A stretch of 64,000 bases of DNA from Desulfobaccales bacterium. Its GTDB lineage: Bacteria > Desulfobacterota > Desulfobaccia > Desulfobaccales > 0-14-0-80-60-11. Positions within the stretch are counted from its first letter, which is position 1; every line of letters begins with the position of its first letter. The notes under the pieces were generated by a model that was given only the letters and a program-made list of their open reading frames with translations, was not told the origin of the DNA and did not search any database. Position numbers and translations under genes: made by a program. Shown in pieces: positions 30,562 through 45,227 of this stretch. The DNA lies in the NCBI GenBank assembly GCA_052147455.1, contig JBKQKO010000124.1:4618-68617 (forward strand). The letters are read 5' to 3'.

Positions 30562-31395
30562 ATGGGATACCATTTCTGGTTAAAGACGTGGATGGCTGGA
30601 TTGCTGCTGACCCTGCCGCTGGCGGGGGTTAAGGCCGCGGCGGAGACTATTCACCTCCGCTGTGCCTCCACCACCTCCACCGAGAACTCCGGGTTGTTCC
30701 AATACCTCCTGCCGATCTTTGAGAAAAAGACCGGCATCCACGTGGATGTGGTGGCGGTGGGGACCGGCGCCGCCATCGAGATCGGCAAGCGAGGCGACGC
30801 CGACATGCTCCTGGTACACGCCAAAGCCTCGGAATTGACCGCGGTCCAGGAAGGCTATTTCGTCAATCGGCACGATTTGATGTATAACGATTTTGTCATC
30901 ATCGGCCCCGCGGGCGATCCTTTGCAGATCAAAGGTCTGACCTCGGCGGCGGAGGCCTTCAAGAAGATCTACGCCGCCGGCGGCCCCTTCGTCTCCCGGG
31001 GAGATAAGTCGGGAACCAATGTGAAGGAACTGGCCTTGTGGAAGGCCGCCGGCCTGGACCCCAAGGGGAAGCCGTGGTACCTGGAGGTGGGCCAGGGCAT
31101 GGAAAAGACCCAGCGGGTGGCCAATGAAAAACGGGCCTACACCCTTACCGACCGGGGCACCTGGCTGGCCACCAAGGATAAGGACAGGATGGAGATGCAG
31201 ATAGTGTTAGAGGGGGATCCGTCCCTGTTCAACCAATACGGGGTGATGGTGGTGAATCCCGAAAAACATCCTCAGGTCAAATATAAAGAAGCCATGACCT
31301 TCATCAACTGGCTGATATCCCCGGAAGGCCAGCAAACCATTGCCGCTTACCGGGATGCCCATGGCAACCAGCTTTTCATCCCCAATGCCAGGTGA
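30562..31395 (+). CDS. tupA: tungstate ABC transporter substrate-binding protein
   Basis: Signal peptide, then ASTTSTENSGLFQYLLPIFEKKTGI..VGTGAAIEIGKRGDADMLLVHA, the TupA-type anion-binding pattern. Confidence 0.8.
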   Translation: MGYHFWLKTWMAGLLLTLPLAGVKAAAETIHLRCASTTSTENSGLFQYLLPIFEKKTGIHVDVVAVGTGAAIEIGKRGDADMLLVHAKASELTAVQEGYFVNRHDLMYNDFVIIGPAGDPLQIKGLTSAAEAFKKIYAAGGPFVSRGDKSGTNVKELALWKAAGLDPKGKPWYLEVGQGMEKTQRVANEKRAYTLTDRGTWLATKDKDRMEMQIVLEGDPSLFNQYGVMVVNPEKHPQVKYKEAMTFINWLISPEGQQTIAAYRDAHGNQLFIPNAR

Positions 31396-31476
31396 GTTTT
31401 GCCGGAGGAGTGGCGCCGGCGCACCTGGTCGGCCGCGGCCAGGATATCCGCAAGGTCCAGGTAGATCCGAGAGACC

Positions 31477-32181
31477 ATGAGTGACCTTCTGCCTTTCCTG
31501 GGCAGCCTCGACTTGCGGGAACTGTGGGGCATCGTCTGGCTGTCCCTCTGGGTCTCCGGCGCCGCCCTCCTGCTGGCGACGGTCATCGCCTTGCCCCTGG
31601 CCGCCCTCCTGGCCTTGCAGCGGTTTCCGGGGCGGGACGCGGTGATCAACACCCTGCAAACCTGCATGGGGCTGCCGCCGGTGGTGGTGGGGCTGTTTCT
31701 CTATCTACTCCTGTCCCGCCAGGGGCTGCTGGGTTTCCTGAGCCTGCTCTATACCCCGGCGGCCATGGTCCTGGCCCAGACCATCCTGGCCTGGCCCATC
31801 GTCGCCTCCCTGGCCCACGCCGCCATCGTCAACGTCGACCCGGTGATTCGTCAGGCGGCCGTGACCCTGGGGGCCACCCCGCGGCAGCAGGCGGTCACCA
31901 TCATCAAAGAAGCCCGCTATGGGATTATCTCCGCGATCATGGCCGGGTTCGGGCGGGCCAATGCCGAAGTGGGCGCGGTGCTCATCGTGGGCGGCAACAT
32001 CGCCGGCTACACCCGAGTCATGACCACCACCATCGCCCTGGAGACCGACAAGGGTAACTTCGAGCTGGGCATTGTCCTGGGGATCATCCTGCTGGCCCTG
32101 GCCCTGCTGGCGAACCTGGCCCTGCGCCGCCTGCAACGGCGGGGGCGGGGCGCCGGGCTGGAGATGAGTTCATGGGCCTGA
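31477..32181 (+). CDS. tupB: tungstate ABC transporter permease
   Basis: 234-aa membrane protein of the CysTW/ModB type, lying between tupA and tupC. Confidence 0.8.
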   Translation: MSDLLPFLGSLDLRELWGIVWLSLWVSGAALLLATVIALPLAALLALQRFPGRDAVINTLQTCMGLPPVVVGLFLYLLLSRQGLLGFLSLLYTPAAMVLAQTILAWPIVASLAHAAIVNVDPVIRQAAVTLGATPRQQAVTIIKEARYGIISAIMAGFGRANAEVGAVLIVGGNIAGYTRVMTTTIALETDKGNFELGIVLGIILLALALLANLALRRLQRRGRGAGLEMSSWA

Positions 32182-32825
32182 GACTGGAAGCGGTCAACCT
32201 CCGGAAAACTTACCCGGGCAACCCGGTGTTGCGGGACTGCTCCTACGCCTTTGCCGCCGGCCGCACTTACGCCTTCCTGGGTCCCAACGGCAGCGGCAAA
32301 TCCACCCTGTTCCGCATCCTGGCCCTCCTGGAGAAAGTCGACGCCGGCCAGGTAAATTATCTGGAAAATGGCGCAGCCCTTGGCCAAAACCTGGAATTAC
32401 GGCGCCGCTTCACCCTGGTGCTGCCTCGCCCCGGCATCTTTAATACCACGGTGTTCCACAACGTCGCCTATGGCCTGAAGATCAGGGGGGTTAAATCCGG
32501 GGAGCTGGAGAACCGGGTGAGGGAGGTCCTGGCCAGCGTGGACCTGGCCCACAAGGGCGGGCAGCGGGCCCTGGACCTCTCCAGCGGCGAAACCAAGCGC
32601 CTGGGACTGGCCCGGGCCATGGTCCTGGCCCCCGAGATCCTCTTCCTGGACGAGCCCACCGCCAACATCGATCCGCACAACGCGGAAATCATCGAGGACA
32701 TCATCCTGCGGATGAAGGCCGGCGGAGGGGCCACCATCCTGATGATCACCCACGACCCGGCCCAGGCGGACCGGCTGGGGGATGAACTCCTCTATCTGAA
32801 GGACGGCCGGCTGCTGGCCGGGTGA
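32172..32825 (+). CDS. tupC: tungstate ABC transporter ATP-binding protein
   Basis: GPNGSGKST Walker A, LSSGETKR signature and LFLDEPT Walker B. Overlaps tupB by 10 nt. Confidence 0.8.
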   Translation: MGLRLEAVNLRKTYPGNPVLRDCSYAFAAGRTYAFLGPNGSGKSTLFRILALLEKVDAGQVNYLENGAALGQNLELRRRFTLVLPRPGIFNTTVFHNVAYGLKIRGVKSGELENRVREVLASVDLAHKGGQRALDLSSGETKRLGLARAMVLAPEILFLDEPTANIDPHNAEIIEDIILRMKAGGGATILMITHDPAQADRLGDELLYLKDGRLLAG

Positions 32826-32897
32826 GGCCGCGGCCCGGGGAATGTTTCAGAAATACCTTTAAAAATATCTATAAGTAAGTTATTGTAGCCGCTTCTG

Positions 32898-32921
32898 GTA
32901 GCCGCAGGCTTTAGCCTGCGC
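32898..32921. repeat. 24-nt palindromic repeat (family C)
   Basis: GTAGCCGCAGGCTTTAGCCTGCGC, the exact reverse complement of 7841..7864. Confidence 0.75.
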
Positions 32922-33051
32922 TCTTTTGATTAAGGATTTTCGCAAACTAAACGTCCAGCGCCTCAGGCGCCAGGAGATCTGCTGCGGCGGAAATCTGCCA
33001 GGCGCAGGGCCCGGCAGGATAGTTACGCCTGCCTGGGCCGGCCTCTTTTCC

Positions 33052-33059
33052 CGGCACCG
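33052..33059. repeat. target-site duplication, left copy (CGGCACCG)
   Basis: An identical 8-mer at 38042..38049 abuts the other TIR. Confidence 0.8.
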
Positions 33060-33076
33060 GGTAGTGTCCTAATTTG
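33060..33076. repeat. left terminal inverted repeat GGTAGTGTCCTAATTTG
   Basis: Exact reverse complement of 38025..38041. Confidence 0.9.
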
Positions 33077-33085
33077 AATTGATTG

Positions 33086-33496
33086 CTATGATTCGAGGAA
33101 AGATTTTAAGAGATTCTTCAAGGCCGTTTCATCCTTGGTTTGACATTCCCATATCACCAGTACGCGCCACCCTTGAACTTGTAAAGCTGCTTTTTGTTCT
33201 GCATCCCGAGCCGCGTTGCGATCCAGCTTCGTCCGCCAAAAGTCAATGTTCGATTTAGGTGCGTTGGCCCTCGGGCATCCTTTATGCTGGTGCCAGAAAC
33301 AGCCGTGTACAAAAATGGCTTTCCGTCGTGAGCGGAAAACAAGATCAGGACTTCCGGGCAAATCGCGGCCGTGCAGCCTATAGCGATAGCCCATACCGTG
33401 AACCATTCTCCGCACAAACATCTCAGGCGCGGTATTCTTTCCCTGGACAGCCCGCATATTGGCGCTTCGGCGCTCGCGGGAAAGTTTGTCAGGCAT
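33086..33496 (-). CDS. vsr: very-short-patch repair endonuclease
   Basis: MPDKLSRERRSANMRAVQGKNTAPE..VRR.LH..GYRYRLH..LPG.PDLVF...AIFVHGCFWH.H is a Vsr signature. Start at ATG 33496 overlaps the HNH gene stop (ATGCCTGA). The track ORF is N-extended. Confidence 0.9.
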   Translation of the reverse strand: MPDKLSRERRSANMRAVQGKNTAPEMFVRRMVHGMGYRYRLHGRDLPGSPDLVFRSRRKAIFVHGCFWHQHKGCPRANAPKSNIDFWRTKLDRNAARDAEQKAALQVQGWRVLVIWECQTKDETALKNLLKSFLES

Positions 33497-34064
33497 CGTC
33501 ACCGAACTTCTTACTGAGCCACGCAAAGACCGCCCGCTGTTCATCCTGTCCGGCACGCCTAACCTGGGAAAGGAGCCAAATGCCGGTCGGTTTTTCAGTA
33601 GTGATGTTCTTCGCTCCCTGATTACACGTCGAACACAAAGCCCGAAGGTTGGAGAGTTCGTCCAAACCCCCGAGGCTTTTGTCCTTGATGTGGCCGATAT
33701 GGAGCCTAACCTTGCGTCCGGTTTCCGGGTCAATCTCGCCAGGGGTGAGGCCGCACATCTGGCAGGTGAAGCCGTTGCGGTCCAGAACCTCGGCGCGAAG
33801 TTTTATTGAAATGCTCCGCGTGAATACCGTGGATGATTTTTCGGGCGGCTTCTGCTGTAGGAGGTATTGGCCGGGCTTCAAAGAGGATGAATCATTGTGC
33901 GTAAGGATCGGCCACCCTTCATCCTCGCGAAGCTCTCTCACGCGTCGCGCCCATTCGCTTACGCCGGTACCGGCGGCATCGCGAATCTCAATGGAGGTAA
34001 CGATCCTCCCGATGTTGGCAAGGAGAAACTGCCGGATTTTCTCTTTGGACCCGACCTTAGTCAT
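33489..34064 (-). CDS. HNH endonuclease with N-terminal winged-helix-like domain (putative restriction enzyme)
   Basis: CQMCG...HIGHIKDKSLGG...NLRALCSTCN HNH/zinc motif. Overlaps the methyltransferase gene by 8 nt. Confidence 0.8.
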   Translation of the reverse strand: MTKVGSKEKIRQFLLANIGRIVTSIEIRDAAGTGVSEWARRVRELREDEGWPILTHNDSSSLKPGQYLLQQKPPEKSSTVFTRSISIKLRAEVLDRNGFTCQMCGLTPGEIDPETGRKVRLHIGHIKDKSLGGLDELSNLRALCSTCNQGAKNITTEKPTGIWLLSQVRRAGQDEQRAVFAWLSKKFGDDA

Positions 34065-34779
34065 TTCCGGTTCGCCTCAACGGTTCCTGCTCCATGGTCA
34101 ATAAGTGCCGGATCAACTGTTCGCCGATATAGCAGGTATAGGCGGGCGGGATGGCCTCATTGATTTCGTTCTTCGTCATCCAGTCAATGTCCATCGCCTC
34201 GCGGGCGGCAGCAATCGTACAATTACCGCCTCCGGTGACTTGAACAAAATCCGTCCATTCATTCGTCTTCCCGAAGTGAGACTTTCTCTTGTCGAAGGTA
34301 TGGACCTTGGGATGCTTTTTATGCTCAGGCCGCGTAATCGGAAAGTTTACCTCAAACAGCCGGTGCCGTAATACCCGGAGGCCGGGGAACATCGTTCCGC
34401 ACAGAACCACGGGGTTGAGCAGCGGAGCGCCCTCGACATTCTCGATAATATAAGGGAGCCCCGTTCGGACAAACATTTCGCGAACAGGCTCAATCAGGCG
34501 CGGCCAATCATCTGCGTTGCGGTTACGCTTGGCGAGGTCCGAATATGACTGACAGGGCGGCGATGCGTGAATGGCATCAAACAATGCGATGAACTTCGGA
34601 TCGAGCGTAAGAGCGTCTGCCAGAATGAACTGAAACGGATAGTTCGGCTGTGGCTTAATATCAACGCCGACAACCTCGAATCCTGCTCTGTTGTAACCGA
34701 CGCCAGCACCGCCAGCACAACAGAAAAGATCGAGTAGCCGGGGCTTCCCTGGTGCCGCTTTAATGCAATCTTTCATCAT
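34057..34779 (-). CDS. compact DNA (cytosine-5) methyltransferase
   Basis: Motif I DLFCCAGGAGVG, motif IV ASPPCQSYS, motif VI YIIENV, and C-terminal EAIPPAY (motif X-like). 240 aa. Confidence 0.9.
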   Translation of the reverse strand: MMKDCIKAAPGKPRLLDLFCCAGGAGVGYNRAGFEVVGVDIKPQPNYPFQFILADALTLDPKFIALFDAIHASPPCQSYSDLAKRNRNADDWPRLIEPVREMFVRTGLPYIIENVEGAPLLNPVVLCGTMFPGLRVLRHRLFEVNFPITRPEHKKHPKVHTFDKRKSHFGKTNEWTDFVQVTGGGNCTIAAAREAMDIDWMTKNEINEAIPPAYTCYIGEQLIRHLLTMEQEPLRRTGND

Positions 34780-34836
34780 ACGCCTCTTTTAATATTGGAT
34801 GTGGCATTTTCGGCCTGATTTAAGTAAGGGAAAACT

Positions 34837-35493
34837 TCATTTGAAAAGTAGGGATATTATAATCCCTGCGAATATTGCAAGCAATCCTGGAAGAATCAGT
34901 TTATAAGTTATGGTAGTTAGTGTGTTCACGCTTTGTGCCAGAGATCGTAAATCTTTGCCAAGGTCCGATAAACTTGTAGTCTCAAGTTCTCTTAAATAAG
35001 CTTTATCTACTTCCGGAATACGTCCTTCTTTATGATCGGGAAAGGGTCCTATCACCTTCTCAACAGCTTTCTCAAGACGATGAAATTCAATGGTGCAAAT
35101 AGGGTCTAAATAATCTACTGTAACAGCTCTGCCGCCACAATTATAAAGCCCAAGTCTTAGATGTCCCTCAAAACCAGGATCAATTTGCATACCAGCAAGA
35201 AGAATTAATCCACGCCTTGCCCAAGAACTTTTCATTCCGATATGTGCAGCTATATTGAGAGGTAATCGAAATGATTCATAAGTCATTATCAATGCGAAAT
35301 CGCCAGCGTGCAATGTTACACTATTCGCCGTGGAGAGATTAATAAGAACATAATCGCGACTGACCAAAGCTTGGCCGCCTGCTCTTGCATCATAAGAACA
35401 AGGTTGCTGTCGATTTGCGTCGTATGGTTCAATGCCAAACTCATGAGATTTAAGGGCTTCTATTATTTCCCCATCTGTAATTAACATGGCCAA
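34837..35493 (-). CDS. dCTP deaminase/dUTPase-fold protein with C-terminal transmembrane anchor
   Basis: Dcd-like blocks SYDARAG, MKSSWARRG and IDPGFEGHLRLGLYN. The C-terminal extension ends in LILPGLLAIFAGIIISLLFK. Confidence 0.8.
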   Translation of the reverse strand: MAMLITDGEIIEALKSHEFGIEPYDANRQQPCSYDARAGGQALVSRDYVLINLSTANSVTLHAGDFALIMTYESFRLPLNIAAHIGMKSSWARRGLILLAGMQIDPGFEGHLRLGLYNCGGRAVTVDYLDPICTIEFHRLEKAVEKVIGPFPDHKEGRIPEVDKAYLRELETTSLSDLGKDLRSLAQSVNTLTTITYKLILPGLLAIFAGIIISLLFK

Positions 35494-35792
35494 TTCTCCT
35501 TTTTTGAGATACCCTTATAGTCATGAACAATGGAAGCCCTGACAGCCTTCTCAGGGGAACCTACGGGAGGAATGTGCAGCACGGCATAATACCGTCTTTT
35601 GGTGCTTCCCTCTATCGGGGAGGACCAGGCATAGCATTTATCGGTCTGAGGATTCCCCTTGATGAGAAAAACAGATACCACTCCGCCCCAGACAGTTTCC
35701 TCCCCAAACATCTCCACCACGGCCACATCTTCCAGGAAGGACGCCTGGCAATGGTGCAGCCGCTCCACGGCCCGTTTCAAATCTTCTTCCAT
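35481..35792 (-). CDS. hypothetical protein (103 aa)
   Basis: Start at ATG 35792 (MEEDLKRAVERLHH...). Its 3' end overlaps the Dcd-like gene by 13 nt. No recognisable motif. Confidence 0.45.
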   Translation of the reverse strand: MEEDLKRAVERLHHCQASFLEDVAVVEMFGEETVWGGVVSVFLIKGNPQTDKCYAWSSPIEGSTKRRYYAVLHIPPVGSPEKAVRASIVHDYKGISKKENWPC

Positions 35793-35827
35793 TGGTAAAC
35801 CTACCTGCGGCGATTTTATCGGAAAGG

Positions 35828-36091
35828 TTAAACGGGAACCAGTTTCGTCCAATCCCATTTTCCTATCTGAATCAAGGTATCCATTGCCGCCGCTATCTCG
35901 GGGTCAAACTTGAAAACATCTTCCCGCGGAAATCCAACAGGTTGAATTTTAGTGTCCCCGGCCAATAAATTCTCAAAGATGGTATCGGTGGTAATATAGA
36001 CCCCCCGCCCAGCCTCTTCCCATATACGGCGAACCAGAGGCTCACCCCCAAAGGCCCTGACAATCACCATATCGCCCTGCATTTCTGCCAC
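35828..36091 (-). CDS. hypothetical protein (87 aa)
   Basis: ORF in the same orientation, 35 nt upstream of the 103-aa ORF. No recognisable motif. Confidence 0.4.
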   Translation of the reverse strand: MAEMQGDMVIVRAFGGEPLVRRIWEEAGRGVYITTDTIFENLLAGDTKIQPVGFPREDVFKFDPEIAAAMDTLIQIGKWDWTKLVPV

Positions 36092-36230
36092 CTCCGTTAT
36101 GAAGATGGTTCCATCTTAAACGGACTTTTATGCAGTTTCAGAAAAAATCGAATATTTTAGATTCCGGTATTGATTTTTATTGACAAGGTATTGGATTAGG
36201 TATAAGGTATTGTCAAATGGAGGGTATGGC

Positions 36231-36944
36231 ATGAACGAAAAAGAGTCCGCCAAGAAAATTATCCCGCCCTATGTGCCTTATAAGACGTTCATTAACTTCC
36301 TGGATAACCTGAGGCAGCAGGGGGTGCCCCAAAAGATTGACCGGAGCATATCGCCTTTTAAGTCAATGTCCGGTGCCCTTCAAGGCCAGGTGCGGTTGGC
36401 CCTGGAATACCTAAATTTGATAACCGATAGCGGAGAAACAACGGAAGGGCTAAAAAAATTGGCCAAAGCTGAGGACGGGATAGAAAGGGAACAAGCTCTA
36501 AAAGATGTCCTTCTGCCTGCTTACTCCTTCATATTCGAAAACGGGATAGACATCGAGAGTGCAACCCATCGCCAATTGGAAGAACTTTTTACTCAAGAAG
36601 GAGCGACAGGAGACACGCTGCGTAAATGCACCGCTTTTTTCCTGTCCGCGGCCAGGGGCGCCGGAATAAAACTGTCTCCCCATTTCAAAAAGGTTCGTAG
36701 CCGGCGTGCGGGTTCAGCAAAGCCAAAACGCCAATCGCAGGCCAAAGCTCCAACCGATAAACAGCCAGCGAAAGAACCGGCGTCTCCCCCAAAAGCCGCA
36801 GAGCCGACAGATGATTCCTCGATGAAGTTCATAATTGATCTAATGGGCAAATTCAATCCAGAGTGGTCCAAAGATGCTCAACAAAACTGGCTTGAAGCAA
36901 TCAATAAGCTACTGGATCGTTTTCAAAAGAAGTCGGGGGATTAA
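36231..36944 (+). CDS. hypothetical protein with globular N-domain and Lys/Pro/Ala-rich basic linker
   Basis: ATG 36231 preceded by GGAGGG. Residues 1-150 look helical/globular, followed by KKVRSRRAGSAKPKRQSQAKAPTDKQPAKEPASPPKAAEP and a short C-terminal helix. Confidence 0.55.
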   Translation: MNEKESAKKIIPPYVPYKTFINFLDNLRQQGVPQKIDRSISPFKSMSGALQGQVRLALEYLNLITDSGETTEGLKKLAKAEDGIEREQALKDVLLPAYSFIFENGIDIESATHRQLEELFTQEGATGDTLRKCTAFFLSAARGAGIKLSPHFKKVRSRRAGSAKPKRQSQAKAPTDKQPAKEPASPPKAAEPTDDSSMKFIIDLMGKFNPEWSKDAQQNWLEAINKLLDRFQKKSGD

Positions 36945-37026
36945 TCCAATGCAGGGGGTGATGAACATGAGAAGAGGCTTGGTTCCTGTCAGCGGTGAAT
37001 CGCCCTGGCAGGGACCGCAAAAGGAA

Positions 37027-37073
37027 GGCTCCATAGCCTCTGAGTCGTTGGCGCGATGCAAGGCTATGGAGCC
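37027..37073 (+). other. perfect 12-bp stem hairpin
   Basis: GGCTCCATAGCC, 23 nt of loop, then GGCTATGGAGCC. Lies in a non-coding-looking region. Confidence 0.6.
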
Positions 37074-37089
37074 GTGGCGATTCTTCTGT

Positions 37090-37157
37090 GGGGCGCGATT
37101 GGTTCCCTGGAGGTCCCTACAGCCCACCTGGGCGGGGTTCGATTCCCCGGCGCTCCA
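37090..37157 (+). ncRNA. tRNA-like / tmRNA-3'-end-like element (68 nt, no normal cloverleaf)
   Basis: 5' GGGGCGC pairs with 3' GCGCTCC, including a G3:U70 wobble, followed by A73. A canonical T-arm CGGGG-TTCGATT-CCCCG is present. Only 36 nt lie between acceptor and T-arm, with no D or anticodon arm that I could fold. Confidence 0.35.
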
Positions 37158-37210
37158 CTTTCATTCAAGATAGCAAGTATTTACCCGGTAGTCAATAAGG
37201 AATCTGCAAG

Positions 37211-38032
37211 ATGAACATTCTGCGGCGGGAAAAGCAGGAAGCGGCGATAGCGGCCCTGGTGGAAGGTGCTTCAATCCGGTCAGTTGAACGCATGACCGGG
37301 ATTCACCGCGATACCATCATGCGCCTCGGCTACCGAGTAGGGCAAGGCTGCGAAAACCTTATGGATTCTTATATGCACCACTTGAAATGCCAGACTGTCC
37401 AGGTTGACGAAATATGGTGTTTTGTGGGTAAAAAGGAGCGCCACCTTAAAGACACCGATAACCTTGAAGAACTTGGCGATCAATGGGTATTTGTGGCCCT
37501 GGACTCCGACAGCAAATTGATACCATCTTATTTGGTGGGGAAACGCTCTACCGCTAATGCCTATGCCTTTATGGAGGACTTATCTGAGCGGCTGGATAAC
37601 AGGGTGCAGTTAAGCAGCGATTCTATGAGGGCTTATATAGGAGCCGTGGATTCGGCATTTGGGGCTATCGTGGATTACGGCCAGGTGGTAAAAGCGTATG
37701 AAACGGAGCCGATTGGCGCAGGCAGGTATTCTCCGCCCAAAGTGATCAGGGCTGACCGGATCATTATTTCCGGCAGCCCTAACCAATCCAAGATATCAAC
37801 CTCACATATCGAGCGGCAAAACTTGACCATGCGGATGCAGATGCGGCGCTTCACCCGGCTGACCAATGCCTTTAGCAAGAAGCTGGATAATCTCAAGGCA
37901 GCCGTGGCCTTGCATTTTGCTCATTATAATTTCGTGCGGATTCATAGCTCACTTCGGGTTACTCCGGCAATGGCCGCGGGTGTCACCGATCACCTTTGGT
38001 CAATTTCTGAACTTATGCGAGAGGCAAATTAG
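37211..38032 (+). CDS. IS1-family transposase (single ORF)
   Basis: N-terminal HTH (SIRSVERMTGIHRDTIMRL), VDEIWCFVGKK, and TSHIERQNLTMRMQMRRFTRLTNAFSKK..NFVRIH..L..TPAMAAG, like the IS1 InsB C-region. The stop codon lies inside the right TIR. Confidence 0.9.
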   Translation: MNILRREKQEAAIAALVEGASIRSVERMTGIHRDTIMRLGYRVGQGCENLMDSYMHHLKCQTVQVDEIWCFVGKKERHLKDTDNLEELGDQWVFVALDSDSKLIPSYLVGKRSTANAYAFMEDLSERLDNRVQLSSDSMRAYIGAVDSAFGAIVDYGQVVKAYETEPIGAGRYSPPKVIRADRIIISGSPNQSKISTSHIERQNLTMRMQMRRFTRLTNAFSKKLDNLKAAVALHFAHYNFVRIHSSLRVTPAMAAGVTDHLWSISELMREAN

Positions 38033-38041
38033 GACACTACC
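38025..38041. repeat. right terminal inverted repeat CAAATTAGGACACTACC
   Basis: Exact reverse complement of 33060..33076. Confidence 0.9.
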
Positions 38042-38049
38042 CGGCACCG
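38042..38049. repeat. target-site duplication, right copy (CGGCACCG)
   Basis: Identical to 33052..33059. Confidence 0.8.
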
Positions 38050-38056
38050 GGATGCC

Positions 38057-38084
38057 TTGACAAGGGGAGTGCATTTGATAAAAT
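38057..38084 (+). promoter_or_regulatory. sigma70-type promoter of tRNA-Arg
   Basis: TTGACA (38057..38062), a 16-nt spacer, then TAAAAT (38079..38084). The tRNA starts about 10 nt downstream. Confidence 0.6.
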
Positions 38085-38093
38085 TTTTGGCGC

Positions 38094-38170
38094 GGGCGAT
38101 TAGCTCAGGTGGATAGAGCGTTGGTCTCCGGAACCAAAGGCCGGGCGTTCGAGTCGCCCATCGCCCGCCA
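38094..38170 (+). tRNA. tRNA-Arg (anticodon CCG)
   Basis: Hand-folded cloverleaf: GGGCGAT/ATCGCCC acceptor, GCTC-AGGTGGATA-GAGC D-arm, TTGGT-CTCCGGA-ACCAA anticodon arm (CCG), GGGCG-TTCGAGT-CGCCC T-arm, encoded CCA. Confidence 0.93.
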
Positions 38171-38194
38171 GTTTCCAAACTTTCCTCAGGCTTT

Positions 38195-38228
38195 GGTGAA
38201 TATCTAGATGAATATCTTCACCAGTTTT
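38195..38228 (+). terminator. possible tRNA terminator hairpin
   Basis: GGTGAATAT...ATCTTCACC imperfect stem followed by AGTTTT. Confidence 0.35.
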
Positions 38229-38576
38229 CCCTCCACAAATCAACTATTCTATAATCGAAGTAATCAGGTGATCTGTGGTTCACCGCATTGCTCCAAGTCT
38301 ACGATGAATTTTTCGTTAGGAGCCACGGCGATCAACGAGGATTAAGAGGATGAGAATTGTGACCCTGCTACAGAATGGCCATTAAGAGTGCAAGGCGAAA
38401 TTATTGGGGCGGCGGCGGGCTTGAGAGGTGGGGGAAAATTAAAGATATATTCCGGATATATGGAGCTTTTTGGCTCAGTGATAAGTCTCGGATCATGGCA
38501 GTACTTGACACTTTTGCCCAATTGCATCCTAGGGCAAATCTCTTCTCAAGTTAATGCCTCTTGGGCGTTTAAGGGA

Positions 38577-39284
38577 TCAAGATATGCCAAGGTATGCTTG
38601 GCGAACCCCGTCATGGGACAGCAGCTCGTCACCTGTCCCTTCAAGAACAATTCGACCCGTCTGGAGCACGTAGGCGCGATCCGCGACTTGCAATGCTTCG
38701 TAGACATTCTGTTCAATGAGTAGCACCGTTAGACCTTCTGACTGCAAGCGCACAATCACCTCAAAAACCTCGTCAACCAACTTCGGCATTAGGCCAAGTG
38801 AGGGCTCGTCGAGTATAAGCAGTTTGGGCCGGGACATCAATCCTCTGGCTATGGCAAGCATCTGCTGCTCTCCGCCCGAGAGGGTCTCTGACTTCTGAAA
38901 TTGACGCTCCTGCAAGCGGGGAAACATTGTGAACACCTGATCAAGCGTAGCTTCTATTTCTCCCTGTTCGTGGCGCGTGTAGGCTCCCAGCAACAGATTG
39001 TCCAGAACGTTCATTTTGCCGAAAATCAGGCGTCCCTCTGGCACATGCGACATACCCCTGGCAACAATTTCATACGGATGTAGGGCGGTGATATCCTCTC
39101 CAAGAAATTCTATGGTCCCCTCAATTGGGTGCAGCAGACCAGAGATTGCCTTGAGCAAGGTCGATTTCCCAGCTCCATTCGAACCGATTACAGAGGTGAT
39201 CTCCCCCTCATTCACCTTGATGGTGATCCCCCGCAGTGCTGGGATTTCATCATACGTCACTTCAATGTCAGCGACCCTTAGCAT
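38577..39284 (-). CDS. HAAT-family ABC transporter ATP-binding protein, LivF-like (set 2)
   Basis: GSNGAGKST, LSGGEQQ and LILDEPS motifs. 235 aa. Confidence 0.9.
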   Translation of the reverse strand: MLRVADIEVTYDEIPALRGITIKVNEGEITSVIGSNGAGKSTLLKAISGLLHPIEGTIEFLGEDITALHPYEIVARGMSHVPEGRLIFGKMNVLDNLLLGAYTRHEQGEIEATLDQVFTMFPRLQERQFQKSETLSGGEQQMLAIARGLMSRPKLLILDEPSLGLMPKLVDEVFEVIVRLQSEGLTVLLIEQNVYEALQVADRAYVLQTGRIVLEGTGDELLSHDGVRQAYLGIS

Positions 39285-40005
39285 GATACTTCACCCCCAG
39301 ATAGGCCTCAATGACCGCTGGATCGTTAAGAACCGTTTCTGGCACGCCTTGGGCGATGAGCCGGCCTCCGTCAAGCACATAGATCCATTCTGCAATGGGA
39401 ATAAGCGCCTCCAATACATGTTCCACCATAAATAGAGTGATCCTCTGTTCTTTTTGCAAATTGCGCAGCAAATCAAGTGCCTCGTGAATCTCCGAGGAAT
39501 TCAGACCAGCCATAGTTTCATCCAGCATCAGCAGCTTTGGTTGCAACCCCAGCGTCATAGCCACCTCAAGACGTTTCTTATCTGCTATCGTCAGGCTCCT
39601 GGCAGGTAGGAGTGCCTTCGATTCCAAGCGGGTCAAGCTAAGGATTTCCTCCGCCCGCCGGCGGGCTTCGTTTACCCTGGATGTCTTGCCAAAGACCCCC
39701 ACCATCACGTTTTCCACCACACTCATATCCATCAGCACCTTGACCACCTGAAAGGTTCTGACGAGTCCGGTATGAGGTACCCGGTATGAAGGAAGTTTGG
39801 TGATTTCCTGCCCTGCAAACTTTATCGTTCCGGCAGTAGGTTTGTAGAAACCGCTGATACAGTTAAAGATGGTAGTCTTGCCGGCTCCGTTCGGGCCGAT
39901 AAGACCAACCACCTGTCCCTCGCCGATTTCCAAGTTAACATCCTGGCAAGCGATCAGGCCTCCGAAACGCTTGGTTAATCCCTTCACTTCGAGTAAGCTG
40001 GTCAC
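39268..40005 (-). CDS. HAAT-family ABC transporter ATP-binding protein, LivG-like (set 2)
   Basis: GPNGAGKTT and LMLDE motifs. GTG start at 40005 overlaps the upstream stop (GTGA). The track ORF is N-extended. Confidence 0.85.
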   Translation of the reverse strand: MTSLLEVKGLTKRFGGLIACQDVNLEIGEGQVVGLIGPNGAGKTTIFNCISGFYKPTAGTIKFAGQEITKLPSYRVPHTGLVRTFQVVKVLMDMSVVENVMVGVFGKTSRVNEARRRAEEILSLTRLESKALLPARSLTIADKKRLEVAMTLGLQPKLLMLDETMAGLNSSEIHEALDLLRNLQKEQRITLFMVEHVLEALIPIAEWIYVLDGGRLIAQGVPETVLNDPAVIEAYLGVKYHAKGR

Positions 40006-41063
40006 GGTTTTCCCTGCTGGGCCTTGATCGACAGACCTGTGGGCCCGGGGCGGCGCCGAAAGTTCCGCAGCCTCTGCAACCATCCCATAACGCCGTTAGG
40101 TTGATAGATAACTATAATGATAATCAATAAACCGTAAATCATCAGGTCCACGCCTCGTCCTGTACCTCCCAGCCAGGCCCGGGCATACTCTGAAATGGGG
40201 ATGAGGATTAAAGCGCCAACCAGAGGTCCAAATAAATAAACGGCTCCTCCCAGGGTAGCTACTAGCACGATAATGGTGGACATGTTGATATTCAGAATGC
40301 TGGCTGGATCAATATAAAGAACATATTGCGCGTAAAAAGTGCCCGCCAAAGCTGTAAAGAAAGCACTGACACCTAATGCCAAGGATTTGTAATGGGCTAG
40401 GTTAACACCTAGTCGTTTCGCTGAATCCTCGTCGTTGGCGATGGCACGAAAATAGAAACCAGGCTTCGTTTGAATCATCCAGTAGGTGACCAGTACGCTC
40501 AAGGCATACAGGCCCAGGACGATGTAGTAATATGGCAGCTTGCTGGAGAATTGGAAATAGCCCCATCCTGACTTGAGTGGCAAACTCAACCCATCTGCGC
40601 CGCCTACTAATCTCCAATTGGAAAAGAGGATTTGCACAACCTGCTGAAGCGCAATGGTCGCAATGGCAAAGTAATGACCCCTCAATTTTGAGAATGGATA
40701 ACCGATCAAAACGGCAAACACGGCGCTGATGAGTCCACCCGCGACCAGCCCGAGCCACGGTGATAGTCCGGTATCAAGAAAAAGTAAAGTCGACGTATAT
40801 GCTCCAAAGCCGAAGAAAACGATATGCCCGAACGAGATCATGCCGGCATATCCCCCTGCCAGGCTCCAAGCTTGCCCGAGAAGGGCGTACATGAAAATTA
40901 GAATTAATACGTGCTGGAAATGGTGATTGTCATACAGCAAAGGCAGGATGCAGAAGAGGAGGGCCGCCGCCGGCAACCAAAGGTTGTCAATCTTAAATTT
41001 TGCTTTATTCCGCCCGTGTCCGCCGGGTGTCGGCTGCCGTTGATTCACTATCTTGGTCACCAT
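40002..41063 (-). CDS. HAAT-family ABC transporter permease, LivM-like (set 2)
   Basis: 353-aa polytopic protein with GYAGMISFGHIVFFGFGAY. Confidence 0.85.
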   Translation of the reverse strand: MVTKIVNQRQPTPGGHGRNKAKFKIDNLWLPAAALLFCILPLLYDNHHFQHVLILIFMYALLGQAWSLAGGYAGMISFGHIVFFGFGAYTSTLLFLDTGLSPWLGLVAGGLISAVFAVLIGYPFSKLRGHYFAIATIALQQVVQILFSNWRLVGGADGLSLPLKSGWGYFQFSSKLPYYYIVLGLYALSVLVTYWMIQTKPGFYFRAIANDEDSAKRLGVNLAHYKSLALGVSAFFTALAGTFYAQYVLYIDPASILNINMSTIIVLVATLGGAVYLFGPLVGALILIPISEYARAWLGGTGRGVDLMIYGLLIIIIVIYQPNGVMGWLQRLRNFRRRPGPTGLSIKAQQGKP

Positions 41064-41917
41064 CCAAACAGACCTTTCGGCCGAATAGAAACCACACCCA
41101 GGTAGATTAGGAAGATGACGGCATCCTTGTATTGAGGTCCCAGATACAGGCCTCCAAGATGCTCTGCCAGGCCGATCATGAGACCTCCTAAGAACGAACC
41201 CGGAACACTGCCAAATCCCCCCAGGGCAACGATGGCGAAGGCCAGCAGGCCAAACTTGTCACCCACACTCGGAAAAACGTAGTAGAAATTACACAACAGA
41301 GATCCAGCCACGCCCAAGAGAGCCAGGGCCACACCGAAGGTAATGCCAAACACCCGCTCCGTATTGATCCCCATCAGCGCGGCCGCTTCCTTACTAATTG
41401 AGGTTGCCTGCACGGCGCGGCCCAGACGGGTTTTTTTTAACCACCAGTAAGTCCCCCCGAAAACGGCAACGCTGGTTAGAGCGGCAATGACTTTTGCCTC
41501 GCTGACCACAAATAATGGAAAACGCCAGGTACCTGAAATCAGGGTACCGCGCAGTTGCTGATAGTCGGGACTCCAAACAAAGACCGCCAAATTAACCAGG
41601 AAGATAGCGATTCCGAACGTTAGGAGCAGTTGTGCCAATATAGGCCCCGTCAGGACCTTCCTTACCATAGTGCCATACGTGCCCCAGCCAACGAAAAACA
41701 TAATCAGTGCGACCAAGGGCAACGATATGAGGGGGTCAATTCCCCAGAGTTTGTCCGCCCAAAAGGTAAGGAACATAGCCAGCATTAAAAAGGCCCCGTG
41801 CGCGAAGTTGATGATGTTCATTACCCCCCAAATCAATGTCATGCCCACGGCGATCAAAGCGTATATTGATCCCATCAGCAATCCGTCGATCACCATTTGC
41901 AGAAGCTGGTTTTCCAT
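41057..41917 (-). CDS. HAAT-family ABC transporter permease, LivH-like (set 2)
   Basis: MENQLLQMVIDGLLMGSIYALIAVGMTLIWGVMNIINFAHG. Confidence 0.88.
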   Translation of the reverse strand: MENQLLQMVIDGLLMGSIYALIAVGMTLIWGVMNIINFAHGAFLMLAMFLTFWADKLWGIDPLISLPLVALIMFFVGWGTYGTMVRKVLTGPILAQLLLTFGIAIFLVNLAVFVWSPDYQQLRGTLISGTWRFPLFVVSEAKVIAALTSVAVFGGTYWWLKKTRLGRAVQATSISKEAAALMGINTERVFGITFGVALALLGVAGSLLCNFYYVFPSVGDKFGLLAFAIVALGGFGSVPGSFLGGLMIGLAEHLGGLYLGPQYKDAVIFLIYLGVVSIRPKGLFGW

Positions 41918-41984
41918 GCTTCTACTCCGCGCACCCGCTCAGAGTCGAAAGAGGGCCTGCTGGTGGCAGGCCCCTCGACCTCTG

Positions 41985-43229
41985 CTACTTGCTCCAGCCG
42001 GGAAACGGCCAGACAATCTTCATCGTGGCAACGTTTGGAGGCCAGACCGTTTGGAATTCCCCATTGACCCTCTGTTGCAAAACTAAAGAGGCGTATTTAT
42101 TCTGTTGGTTCTGGTCAAATTGAATTCCTTTCCATGGCATAATGCCTGCACTCATGTTGGTCGTCACCAGCGCCTTTTGAATGGCATCCGGGTTCGTGGA
42201 ACCGGCACGGTTGATCGCATCCGCCAAAACAAACGGCGCGTTGAAACTCCGTACGGCATTTTCGGTTATATCGTGACCGAACTTCTTGCGGTAAAGATCG
42301 TTGACCTGTTGAATCGCCGGAATGGTTTTTGCCATAGCAAGATTGAACTCAGACAGCACCACGAAATAATCTGCATCGGGGCCTACCGTTTTCAAATACG
42401 ACCTATCCGTATGCCCCGTCCATGACATAAGGGCCTGTGGAGTGAAGTTATGGAGTTTGAAAGCTTCCGTGTAAAGTATTTCATCCGAAACATAGGAATT
42501 TTCCATCACGACGTCCGGGTGTGCATCCATGATGCGGGCCACTTCGCTGGAGACGTCCGTGGTGCTGTGAGAATAGGGCACATCTGCTACAATTTCGTAC
42601 CCGTATTTCTTGGCGCCAATCTTCTCTTGCTCGGCAACGCTGGAGCCCCACTCTGAGTTCTCATATACCAGGGCGATCCGATTGATGGAATGTCCCTGCT
42701 TTCTCATGCCCTCCAAGAATTCGAATTGGTCCTGGGCACCTATCGAGACGTTGGGGTTAGCGCGGAAAAAATAATGAAAGCCCCGTTCGGTCAACGCGGT
42801 AGAAGTCGAGTCCGAACACACCATGGGTATATGCATGCGCTCGGTTACCTGGCTCACCGTTTTGGTTACGGAACTTTGATAAGCCCCGACCATGGCCACA
42901 ACTCCATTGTTGGAGATAAGGTACTCTGCTGCGCTAATCCCGGTTTGGGGAGACCCCTGGGAGTCTGAAAATACGGCCTCTAACTTTGCCCCACCCAGGG
43001 AAGGAATGCCAGCAGTTTTTGCAAAGGGAATATCTATGTCATACTCATTATTAATGATATCGATTGCCAGTTCCACACCCGATTTACACTCCTGTCCCGT
43101 CGAGGCTACATCCCCGGTCAAGGGGTAAACGGCGCCGATCTTAATGACCCCAGCGGCAAGGCTTATTCCAGGGAGAATAACCACCACGGCAAGAACCAGT
43201 ATCCCTAGGCCTACGTATTTGCGAACCAT
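41985..43229 (-). CDS. HAAT-family substrate-binding protein (set 2)
   Basis: Signal peptide, then IKIGAVYPLTGDVASTGQE, typical of the type-1 PBP (LivK family). Confidence 0.85.
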   Translation of the reverse strand: MVRKYVGLGILVLAVVVILPGISLAAGVIKIGAVYPLTGDVASTGQECKSGVELAIDIINNEYDIDIPFAKTAGIPSLGGAKLEAVFSDSQGSPQTGISAAEYLISNNGVVAMVGAYQSSVTKTVSQVTERMHIPMVCSDSTSTALTERGFHYFFRANPNVSIGAQDQFEFLEGMRKQGHSINRIALVYENSEWGSSVAEQEKIGAKKYGYEIVADVPYSHSTTDVSSEVARIMDAHPDVVMENSYVSDEILYTEAFKLHNFTPQALMSWTGHTDRSYLKTVGPDADYFVVLSEFNLAMAKTIPAIQQVNDLYRKKFGHDITENAVRSFNAPFVLADAINRAGSTNPDAIQKALVTTNMSAGIMPWKGIQFDQNQQNKYASLVLQQRVNGEFQTVWPPNVATMKIVWPFPGWSK

Positions 43230-43869
43230 TTTTCGTCCCTCCCTTCATTCTCATCCAAACGAATTAATTTGTTTGGAAACCCCTCTCCGCCAAAACATCA
43301 CTCCCTTGCAGAATACCACGGGAGGTAGATAGTTAGAGGGGGGCATTAAGCATCCCCGGCGAAAATGTACTTTTTTGCCTGCTCCGCCGCACTGCGGGTA
43401 TTTAACGTTTACCTTACCCAGACAAGTTTCACATGTAGCTATCTCCTTTATCTGTAAATTTTATAGTTGCTATCAACCGATCTCATGCCGCAAAGAGGTA
43501 ATGCGTCTTATAGCCAAATTATCTCGTAGGAGGCATGATAGCACAAATTTCCCTGAAAGATTAATTTTTCCAAAAATCTGAGCATACCCAACCCTCAGAA
43601 TCCAAATACTTCCCAGTTGTGGAGCTTAAGGAGCCCAACCCAGCACCGCCCGGTAATGGTGCGCTAGAGGAAGGGCGAAGGCGCGGTCTCCTTTGCTCAT
43701 GGGACTGAATATAGCTTGCCAGGATTAGCAGTTATCCCTTTGGAGGGCGAAATTCCGGATATGATTTGGATATGGGAAGTTTCATCTTCGAAATGATTAC
43801 TAGGCATAGAGGTAATTTCCAACCTAACCCGGATCAAGAGGCCCCCCATCAGCTCATCGGCAACCACCA

Positions 43870-44283
43870 TTAACTTTCAGCCGGTATAATTTCTTCTTTG
43901 AGACGCACGGCATGAACACATCCAATAAACTGCCCATCTTTTCTCATAGGTGTAAGTGTTACGAGAATGACCTTTCCATAAGGCTTGGCCTCATAATGGA
44001 ATGGCTCAGTCCTTCCCCCGGAGAACTCCAGGAGCATCGAATCAAATTTTTGGTTAGTAATTGCTTTCTTATGATGTAGATGGATATCCGAGCCGATATA
44101 TTCAGGTTTGCGGTCCAATATCTCGGCCGAATGACGATTATAATAGAGGAGAGTTCCTTTCGGGTTGAAAATTGTCACACCCACCTCTAAGCAATCCATT
44201 GCAAGAGAGACCAGTTCCCTCAATTGTGTTATACTTTCAGGTTCTCCCAGATGATTGCTCCCATTATTTTTTTCCTCGTTCAT
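43870..44283 (-). CDS. stand-alone PAS-domain protein
   Basis: 137 aa with a PAS-like core (GVTIFNPKGTLLYYNRHSAEILDRKPEYIG...DGQFIGCVHAV). Confidence 0.6.
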   Translation of the reverse strand: MNEEKNNGSNHLGEPESITQLRELVSLAMDCLEVGVTIFNPKGTLLYYNRHSAEILDRKPEYIGSDIHLHHKKAITNQKFDSMLLEFSGGRTEPFHYEAKPYGKVILVTLTPMRKDGQFIGCVHAVRLKEEIIPAES

Positions 44284-44428
44284 AGCTCCTGCCTGGGAAA
44301 GACATCCTATCTCAAGGCATGTTTTGTAGTTGCCTTCTCTTTTAATCCGATTATTTCATCAAGGGTGTATCTCCCGCTTTTCCCAGGAAGATTAAGGCGA
44401 GTGCTTTGACCCAGCCGCACGTGTTCTT

Positions 44429-44701
44429 TCACCAACGCCTAGGCATCTGCCGAGATGAGAAACGTGTACCTACTCGCTTATTGGCTGCCTCGATACGGCT
44501 GGCAAGGTTTACTGCAGCGCCGATGACCGTCATCTTCTTGTTCCCTGGAGCGCCCAAGGTCCCAGCCACTACTTGTCCGTAGTGCAAGCCTAAACGTATC
44601 TCAAAGCTCTCTTGGTATAGCTCCTTCAAATAAGGACCAAGTTTCTGGACAGCATCGATCATCTCAAGTCCTGTCTGGATGGCCCGTGCGGCAGCCTTGG
44701 C
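44429..44701 (-). pseudogene. 5'-truncated, 3'-frameshifted class III adenylate/guanylate cyclase fragment
   Basis: Only the C-terminal half of the catalytic domain is present (RLGLHYGQVVAGTLGAPGNKKMTVIGAAVNLASRIEAANK). Homology continues 13 codons upstream of the M and then hits a stop. The metal-binding N-half is absent and the C-terminus reads out of frame. Confidence 0.7.
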
Positions 44702-44774
44702 CTAACGTAGTCAAAAAGCGGTTTTTGGGATCCCTTTGCCAGGGGCAAACCCCACAAAGCTTCTCTCGCTGCAA

Positions 44775-45227
44775 CTATTGCCGCCGGACCTTTTCCATCG
44801 CCGCGGTAATGGCCTCCTTGTTGAGGACAAACTCCATCATCCCTACCTGTTGCTCGTAGGTTTTCGAATCCACCAACTCCTTGATGCGGTCTTCCAGGAT
44901 GTGATATACAGGGAGTCCCAACGGGACTCCGGCCAAAGGACCTGCGAAGGTGGGGTCGCCTTTGGTGACGGTTTCAGCATAGATTTCAGCGCTTTCCGCA
45001 TCGGGAGAGCCCAAAACCACCACCAGGTTTTCCGTGCCGTTGTCTTCAACGGCTTTCTTGATCGTCCCCTGATCTTCCAGATCCATGGCCCCCGCCGCAG
45101 TTCAGACAAAGCACTGGGTCAACGCCAGGACCGGTTGAGCTCCTGCGGTCCGGATGCACTCGGCAATGGCCGGGGCTGGCACCCCATCCCGTTCCCCGAT
45201 GCAAATGACTTTCTTTCCTTGTAACAT
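44775..45227 (-). CDS. grdA: glycine/sarcosine/betaine reductase complex selenoprotein A
   Basis: Translating through the TGA at 45102..45104 gives [53 protein letters not shown]...GDPTFAGPLAGVPLGLPVYH, including the canonical CxxU motif. GAGGAGG RBS before ATG 45227. The track shows only the part 3' of the UGA. Confidence 0.93.
45102..45104 (-). other. in-frame UGA (selenocysteine) codon of grdA
   Basis: Codon 42, within CFV-U-TAAG. Confidence 0.9.

Follow-up and report, generated by a model that had tools for sequence, protein, structure and literature searches.

What does a bacterial transposon gain by carrying a gene for a dCTP deaminase-like protein that lacks the deaminase Glu and ends in a hydrophobic helix, and does this gene work alone or together with the two small open reading frames (ORFs) beside it? 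The locus that raises this question lies in a 64,000-nucleotide stretch of DNA from a Desulfobaccales bacterium (assembly GCA_052147455.1, contig JBKQKO010000124.1, forward-strand positions 4,618 to 68,617), the whole of which we refer to as the window, and in which the ORF listing places three minus-strand ORFs within 34837-36091, as a preliminary description of these letters had said. We call the Dcd-like protein DCD-TM and the two small ORFs ORF1 and ORF2. We found that DCD-TM represents a real protein family, for which the literature that we found holds no description, and that it is carried as cargo by transposons of the IS1 family of insertion sequences (ISs); of the two, the transposon context is the more solid discovery.

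The DCD-TM protein and its family

The Dcd-like ORF is listed as 35493-34837 (218 aa, from TTG 35493); the true start is almost certainly not this TTG but ATG 35487, which yields a protein of 216 aa. AAGGAG lies 8 nt 5' of this ATG, alignment places MLMTD at the N-terminus of every DCD-TM homologue, and the same length of 216 aa is found in the database representative of 100% identity and in MGO9622445.1, the NCBI sequence in the 90% cluster (from a Desulfobaccales metagenome-assembled genome). The overlap with the stop end of ORF2 is therefore 7 nt, so that the overlap reported in the preliminary description holds, while the length given there for the Dcd-like ORF (218 aa) and the extent of its overlap with the 103-aa ORF (13 nt) do not. 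Residue numbers below follow the 218-aa ORF from TTG (minus 2 for the 216-aa numbering).

The head of DCD-TM has the fold of Dcd and dUTPase, as had been read by eye from its motifs: it matches Pfam PF22769 (DCD, 'dCTP deaminase-like') at 3.6e-18 (66.5 bits against a cut-off of 27) over profile positions 2-152 of 153, and its AF2 model (96 sequences; pLDDT 89.7) superposes on solved members. In the model, the jelly roll of the head runs to ~140 and is followed by short helices; confidence drops at 170-180, and a single helix covers 175-217. HMMER gave as best matches in the Protein Data Bank (PDB) the archaeal dUTPases 9ln0 and 8y1w (61.8 and 60.0 bits; titled 'dUTPase P45' and Thermococcus pacificus dUTPase complexed with dUMP, respectively), and Foldseek on the model placed 8y1w first (1.4e-14) and 9ln0 next, followed by Dcd and Dcd:dut enzymes (E 1e-14 to 1e-10 for 8y1w, 9ln0, 2qlp, 1xs1 and 1ogh). 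These archaeal Dcd-like dUTPases (Pyrococcus furiosus 'P45', 9ln0/9ln3; T. pacificus, 8y1w) are the best matches by both sequence and structure, with TM-scores of 0.87-0.91 on the target and 30-32% identity to the DCD-TM head, and they have in common with it the SxxAR and (I/V)DPG(F/W)xG motifs and a residue other than Glu at the deaminase position. Each is soluble, ~155 aa long and equipped with the usual C-terminal lid, whereas DCD-TM has instead a linker, a heptad stalk and a transmembrane (TM) tail, and is transposon-borne in bacteria.

The residue that replaces the Glu is Gly: G115 (G113 in the 216-aa protein) stands at the Glu of 'ITLELSN' in M. tuberculosis Dcd:dut, and the same Gly aligns with Glu138 of E. 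coli Dcd. The substitution had been rightly noted before; its reading as a loss of catalysis is not supported, because the nearest solved relatives are bona fide dUTPases that are also without the Glu, both 9ln0 and 8y1w having Met there in the HMMER alignment. The Dcd and Dcd:dut enzymes (E. coli 1xs1, M. tuberculosis 2qlp, M. jannaschii 1ogh) have the fold, PF22769 and the Ser/Arg and Asp motifs in common with DCD-TM, which keeps the motif II Ser/Arg (S89, R93), the motif III Asp (D105) and the Gln/Asn pocket residues (Q103, N118). Unlike DCD-TM with its Gly, they possess the catalytic Glu (E138 or equivalent), and DCD-TM scores 82.8 bits with the TIGR02274 dCTP deaminase model, under its equivalog cut-off of 92.8.

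A profile search of 1.84 billion representatives returned 139 at E <= 1e-30, and the residue and tail statistics given here come from the best 150 family representatives. Glu is never among the residues listed at the deaminase Glu column in these 150 (Gly 78, Ser 21, Thr 16, Ala 12, Pro 7, Arg 4 and Asn 4; 142 in all), D105, N118 and G95 are kept in 143, 148 and 145, respectively, position 89 holds Ser or Thr in 123 and position 93 Arg or Lys in 121, and Q103 is kept as well. The family forms ~140 clusters at 50% identity, mostly from uncultured Planctomycetota, Verrucomicrobiota and Desulfobaccales and some archaea, across which the pocket residues D105, N118, S89, R93, Q103 and Y34-D35 are near-invariant. 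As judged from these alignments, the absent Glu is a clade character of a dUTPase-like branch of Dcd whose nucleotide pocket is under selection; a head that belongs to this Glu-less branch is therefore predicted to be no dCTP deaminase, although 'dCTP deaminase' is the label that family members bear in databases.

Few of the species genomes scanned held a member, and the gene differs in composition from the surrounding DNA. A pattern scan found DCD-TM in 9 of 185,579 species genomes, none occurred in 2.9 million IMG/VR viral contigs, and the GC content of the gene was under that of the distal flanks in 32 of 33 loci. Plasmid and phage collections held no close relatives, only canonical Dcd/Dut and two distant, TM-tailed plasmid relatives. 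The latter are Dcd-like proteins (~27% identity) of an Acuticoccus plasmid (NZ_CP133481.1; L077, 4953-5648) and a Rhizobium plasmid (NZ_CP121643.1; L078, 5079-5723), each with a C-terminal TM tail and with Ser at the Glu position; both have uracil-DNA glycosylase (UDG) genes within ~0.6-3 kb, joined on the Acuticoccus plasmid by MazG and an HTH/ImmA pair. We considered and rejected a general link of UDG or MazG genes to DCD-TM, since they occurred only on these two alphaproteobacterial plasmids and at none of the other loci.

Behind the head (residues 1 to ~150) follow a linker, GRIPxxDKxYLRxLETTSLS (157-176), a heptad stalk (175-198) and a TM segment (199-217). This is the C-terminal extension of ~65 aa with a hydrophobic helix that had been described before, and the description stands: the end 19-mer (199-217) has a Kyte-Doolittle mean of 2.7, and AF2 builds one long helix. 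Read from the sequence, the a/d positions of the stalk's three heptads are L175, L178, L182, L185, V189, L192 and I196; the TM helix holds a conserved Pro and AIFxG (P...AIFxG), after which come only one to a few residues. Homologue alignments show both the linker motif and the TM motif to be conserved and family-specific, and of the 126 representatives whose sequences extend as far as the linker, 97 have a hydrophobic C-terminal segment. Because DCD-TM is without an N-terminal signal sequence and its TM segment is C-terminal, it is predicted to be tail-anchored. In dUTPases and Dcd, a C-terminal lid motif closes on the triphosphate. The usual lid was not found in DCD-TM, where the matches to 9ln0 and 8y1w stop at query ~144 and give way to linker, stalk and TM segment.

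In the literature we found no description of a membrane-anchored dUTPase or Dcd, nor of an IS with a dCTP deaminase passenger, and together with the lack of a PADLOC match this is in line with the earlier remark that a Glu-less, membrane-anchored Dcd fold with two small partners was not known to be described. The dUTPase domain listed by DefensePredictor belongs to a different system, MazG-C / aGPT-Pplase.

IS1-family elements that carry DCD-TM

The preliminary description had taken the ORFs for transposon cargo, and inverted repeats (IRs) and a target duplication do enclose them (Table 1). The 17-nt IR GGTAGTGTCCTAATTTG (GGTAGTG...) occurs only at two inverted sites in the window, for a chance expectation of 0.06 matches, and seven non-transposase genes lie between the IRs (33060-38041). 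The IS1-family norm (ISfinder) is ends of the form GGnnnTG and a target duplication of 8-9 bp. The window element is like the IS1-family members of the transporter insertion sequences, or tISs (PMC9330008), in its IS1-type DDE transposase, its short IRs of the GGnnnTG type, its 8-bp duplication and its passengers inside the IRs; it is unlike them in the single 273-aa ORF of its transposase, which scores below the NCBIfam IS1 equivalog cut-off (transpos_IS1; 70.7 bits against 100). At least 8000 homologues of this transposase were counted, a figure which is a lower bound, and many of them are named 'IS1 family transposase' at source. For IS1-family tISs we found no description of a swappable cargo slot headed by ORF2, nor of a tRNA-like leader, both of which we describe below.

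We fetched 68 loci bearing the family (L numbers below denote individual loci), and DCD-TM recurs among them as IS cargo. Four independent elements, those of the window, L001, L004 and L009, have both IRs and 8-bp target duplications, and the transposases of the latter three are 48-51% identical to the window's. Overall, DCD-TM-adjacent transposases are 37-51% identical to the window's, although the DCD-TM of L014 is 81% identical; that of L013 (342 aa, 37% identical) has paired Cys motifs (CxxC) at its N-terminus. A single IR is kept beside DCD-TM in five further loci (L014, L017, L018, L027 and L065), and transposase remnants lie by it in L039 and L049. In elements other than the window's, the transposase gene's 3' end and the nearest IR enclose DCD-TM, which can have either orientation; the DCD-TM of the window element occupies the slot headed by ORF2. 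DCD-TM as a two-IR mobile cassette (MIC) was tried and rejected, the one-IR loci having given no second IR.

Two further observations concern these relatives. At the far end of the element, L001 (9380-9622), L004 (3704-3940) and L009 (5034-5282) encode a conserved protein of ~80 aa with the motif NPAAVALGRLGG(L/K)KGGKARA, which gave no family match. In the archaeal-like locus L003 (4729-5898), DCD-TM follows another transposase (SWIM + DDE_Tnp_IS240) in the same order, transposase and then DCD-TM, an arrangement which suggests that more than one IS family may carry DCD-TM.

Candidate functions of DCD-TM

We reasoned about function from the fold, the tail and the company that DCD-TM keeps. To our minds there is a little better than an even chance that DCD-TM is IS1-family tIS cargo which encodes a tail-anchored, trimeric protein that binds or hydrolyses pyrimidine deoxynucleoside triphosphates (dNTPs) and has a role in genetic conflict, with no trio involved. 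The head would form the obligate homotrimer of the fold, would bind a pyrimidine dNTP of the dUTP/dCTP type, and would probably hydrolyse dNTP to dNMP and pyrophosphate, as archaeal dUTPases do. Through its three stalks and TM helices the enzyme would be kept on the inner side of the membrane, and these may couple nucleotide occupancy to the TM bundle. A conflict function (anti-phage, against mobile genetic elements, or exclusion) would be the most likely biological role, because the IS slot otherwise holds restriction-modification (R-M), toxin-antitoxin and BstA-like genes; it is also suggested by a distant member of the family (L079), which adjoins an AIPR abortive-infection gene, and by the TM-tailed plasmid relatives near UDG genes, one of them with MazG.

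The comparison with defensive dCTP deaminases that had been drawn before is not supported. The 576-aa defensive protein of Tal et al. (bioRxiv 10.1101/2021.04.26.441389), a dCTP deaminase, joins a kinase at its N-terminus to a zinc-dependent cytosine deaminase domain, and its fold is unrelated to that of DCD-TM. Neither domain was found in DCD-TM by Pfam or PADLOC, and all that links the two proteins is the broad notion of a defence that acts on the dCTP/dNTP pool.

Several points weigh against the reading of DCD-TM as a nucleotide-handling conflict protein carried by ISs. No PADLOC model matches DCD-TM. The link to ISs was made at ~13 of ~56 distinct loci, with many contigs too short to judge, and DCD-TM is minority cargo (~180 proteins versus the at least 8000 transposase homologues). 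Outside IS elements, copies are solitary and lie mostly among housekeeping genes; few of 145 proximal ORFs match PADLOC defence models, a count that has no control set, and no defence-island enrichment was seen round these non-IS copies in that count. With no C-terminal lid, catalysis may be weak or lost, leaving binding only. Finally, we infer trimerisation and membrane insertion of DCD-TM from its fold family and from hydropathy.

Rather unlikely, in our estimate, is that DCD-TM is a ligand-gated abortive-infection (Abi) or exclusion effector, akin to the Abi-type, dNTP-sensing effector suggested in the preliminary description but acting as a single protein: its trimer would read a pyrimidine dNTP, e.g., dUTP or one modified by a phage, and in response rearrange a TM bundle of three helices. 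The three pockets would then signal via the ETTSLS hinge and the coiled-coil stalk to the P...AIFxG TM bundle, which would breach or gate the membrane, and IS1-family transposons would spread swappable immune cargo.

We are similarly doubtful that DCD-TM is a pool-sanitising dUTPase, which, by keeping dUTP low, would reduce both the incorporation of uracil and the attack of UDG on new element DNA, its tail serving for localisation only. Retroviruses, some retrotransposons and many phages keep pool-sanitising dUTPases, which are mobile-element-borne and soluble and keep motif V; DCD-TM differs from them in that it is lid-less, predicted to be tail-anchored, and found on a DNA transposon. A sanitising role would fit active dUTPases as the closest solved relatives, the conserved pocket residues, the tight packing of DCD-TM beside the transposase gene in five lineages, and the UDG genes (with MazG in Acuticoccus) near the plasmid relatives of Acuticoccus and Rhizobium. 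However, the lid that efficient dUTPase catalysis requires is missing, the conserved TM motif and stalk are hard to explain by localisation, most transposase relatives are without such a gene, and the viral contigs yielded no family member.

Both the deaminase Glu and the lid have been lost, and linker and TM segment carry strongly conserved motifs of the family's own, as might be expected of a pseudo-enzyme in which the dUTPase fold serves as a scaffold for trimerisation or for binding a ligand or protein, in a membrane-based role (exclusion, addiction) with no nucleotide turnover. Phage Dut proteins, which can act as signalling proteins, provide an analogy. The near-invariance of the pocket across the family's clusters argues that nucleotide is still bound, however, and we hold a pure scaffold to be distinctly unlikely.

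We judge very improbable the three-gene system of the preliminary description, in which ORF1, ORF2 and a catalytically dead, dNTP-sensing membrane effector would form a dedicated defence system. In its favour, all three ORFs point the same way, ORF2 overlaps DCD-TM, and the block is found again in L019 and L021 at ~73% nucleotide identity. However, a tblastn search of the 68 fetched loci found ORF1 in 2 (L019 and L021) and ORF2 in 3-4 (L019, L021 and a fragment in L020), and these are close relatives, whose DCD-TM proteins are 69-71% identical. All three genes thus occur together in one narrow lineage only, and the co-occurrence expected of a system failed: L014 has a DCD-TM 81% identical, yet neither ORF1 nor ORF2, and all more distant fetched loci are likewise without both.

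Nor does ORF2 behave as a partner. It is listed as 35858/35792-35481 (125/103 aa), the 103-aa form being backed by 41 aligned homologues, and its family of 584 homologues (~100 aa; mean column identity of the alignment 67%) is far commoner than DCD-TM. Homologues 69-83% identical stand in same-lineage IS elements without the Dcd-like gene, where they head unrelated cargo (Table 1); in every case ORF2 opens the cargo operon, and its end often overlaps the beginning of the gene behind it. ORF2 gave no Pfam domain and no informative NCBIfam, PADLOC or PHROGs match, and its AF2 model (pLDDT 87.7) gave no significant fold match in the PDB. By its distribution, ORF2 belongs to the backbone of one lineage of IS1-family transposons and is no dedicated partner of DCD-TM; it could act as regulator or leader for the cargo slot.

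Base composition separates the genes as well. The GC content is 40.1% in the DCD-TM gene, 51.6% in ORF2, 50.0% in ORF1, 49.9% in the whole element and 62.8% in the left host flank, so the earlier statement that the trio is the most AT-rich part of the cargo is right for the Dcd-like gene and wrong for ORF1 and ORF2, which lie about the element mean. This gap between DCD-TM and the two small ORFs points to separate origins. These results suggest that DCD-TM is a self-contained single cargo gene and not a member of a three-gene operon system.

There is next to no chance that DCD-TM is an ordinary housekeeping dCTP deaminase or dUTPase, mis-annotated or hitch-hiking, in agreement with the preliminary description: its database name favours this, but it falls below the TIGR02274 cut-off, has a TM tail and no Glu, sits inside an IS with a target duplication, and belongs to a family that is sparse in the species genomes and lower in GC than its host flanks.

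The cargo slot and its surroundings

The features of the window element and of its relatives are collected in Table 1.

Table 1. Features of the window element (window coordinates), complete DCD-TM elements of other loci, and the cargo that follows ORF2 in same-lineage elements.
Feature	Position	Strand	Evidence or remark
Complete IS1-family transporter IS (tIS), 4982 bp	33060..38041		IRs + target duplication
Target-site duplication, 8 bp, CGGCACCG	33052..33059 (left), 38042-38049 (right)		direct repeat
Left IR (IRL), 17 nt	33060..33076	+	GGTAGTGTCCTAATTTG
Vsr very-short-patch repair endonuclease	33086..33496	-	Pfam Vsr 4.3e-27; TIGR00632 148.7 bits, cut-off 97.85
HNH restriction endonuclease, 191 aa	33489..34064	-	Pfam HNH 3e-8; PADLOC REase_II 1.1e-12
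C5 cytosine DNA methyltransferase, 240 aa	34057..34779	-	Pfam DNA_methylase 3.5e-8; PADLOC MTase_II 1.5e-11
DCD-TM, 216 aa, Dcd/dUTPase-fold, predicted tail-anchored	34837..35487	-	Pfam, NCBIfam, alignment, AF2
ORF2, 103 aa, cargo-operon leader gene	35481..35792	-	584 homologues, alignment
ORF1, 87 aa	35828..36091	-	only in close relatives L019, L021
p254, divergently transcribed	36180..36944	+	weak DUF5343 match; homologue only in L021
tRNA-like element 5' of transposase gene, in conserved leader 36954-37210	37088..37158	+	Rfam mascRNA-menRNA 30.9 bits, E=0.0023, below gathering score
IS1-family DDE transposase, 273 aa, single ORF	37211..38032	+	Pfam DDE_Tnp_IS1 (PF03400) 34.5 bits, cut-off 24.1
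Right IR (IRR), 17 nt, overlaps transposase stop codon	38025..38041	-	GGTAGTGTCCTAATTTG
L001 complete DCD-TM element, 3830 bp			target duplication CAAATTCT, 8 bp
L004 complete DCD-TM element, 3073 bp			target duplication GCGTTTCG, 8 bp
L009 complete DCD-TM element, 3743 bp			target duplication CAAAAGTC, 8 bp
L071-74 cargo after ORF2			765-aa N6 methylase with specificity domain
L069 cargo after ORF2			74-aa protein + N6_N4 methylase
L075/76 cargo after ORF2			KilA-N/BstA_C protein
L083-87 cargo after ORF2			SocA_Panacea + 124-aa protein
L088-91 cargo after ORF2			Type I M and S subunits

The genes of the C5 methylase, the HNH endonuclease and Vsr lie directly downstream of DCD-TM, so the R-M module had been placed correctly next to it. 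The probable start of Vsr is Met80 of a 215-aa ORF. In the C5 methylase, Pfam covers only the N-terminal catalytic third of the model, and the protein, paired with the HNH nuclease and Vsr, may be an unusually compact or a truncated enzyme. ORF1 had no match in Pfam, NCBIfam, PADLOC or PHROGs, and p254 had no informative match in these beyond the weak one to DUF5343; p254 was also considered as a homologue of a conserved 251-267-aa protein in the same slot of other elements, and was rejected as such because the two show no similarity. ORF1 and p254 are lineage-specific fillers.

Cargo exchange is most directly seen in a related Desulfobaccales (L069; GCA_052916145.1, JBLFKS010062687.1), which has the orthologous host site of window 30670-38216. 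Its host ABC transporter genes are 83% identical to those in the window, and the IS ends, at the same site, are 91-92% identical; however, the cargo differs (Table 1), with no DCD-TM, ORF1 or p254. The same IS at the same site with other cargo gives direct evidence that cargo is swapped within an IS that stays in place.

The tRNA-like element keeps a cloverleaf-like consensus in 5 elements, with 3 compensated pairs; ARAGORN made no call there, folding of the single sequence was not significant against shuffled sequences (z = -1.3), and a 76-aa ORF is annotated across it by gene callers. One possible role is that of an RNase P site insulating the expression of the transposase.

The insertion point of the element lies ~45 nt upstream of tRNA-Arg(CCG). 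To the right of this tRNA, GC content is ~50% for ~7 kb (window 38050-45000), versus ~60% either side, and a second foreign segment may thus begin at the tRNA. In L071/L072 (501-1307 and 2078-2118), a second IS1-family transposase (48% identical) is present close by, and the IRL of the window-type element is directly adjoined by an L001-type IR, GGTAGTGTATCAGTTTG, in what looks like side-by-side tIS insertions.

Taken together, this work defines an uncharacterised architecture in which a dUTPase/Dcd head is joined to a predicted coiled-coil stalk and tail anchor. IS1-family elements are usually seen as minimal; in these lineages they form transporter ISs of 3-5 kb, with a conserved leader gene and a slot that exchanges R-M, toxin-antitoxin, BstA-like and DCD-TM genes. 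If DCD-TM should prove to be an immune effector, it would represent a new enzyme fold for nucleotide-based defence, and the cargo slots of ISs would be a place for defence genes outside defence islands.

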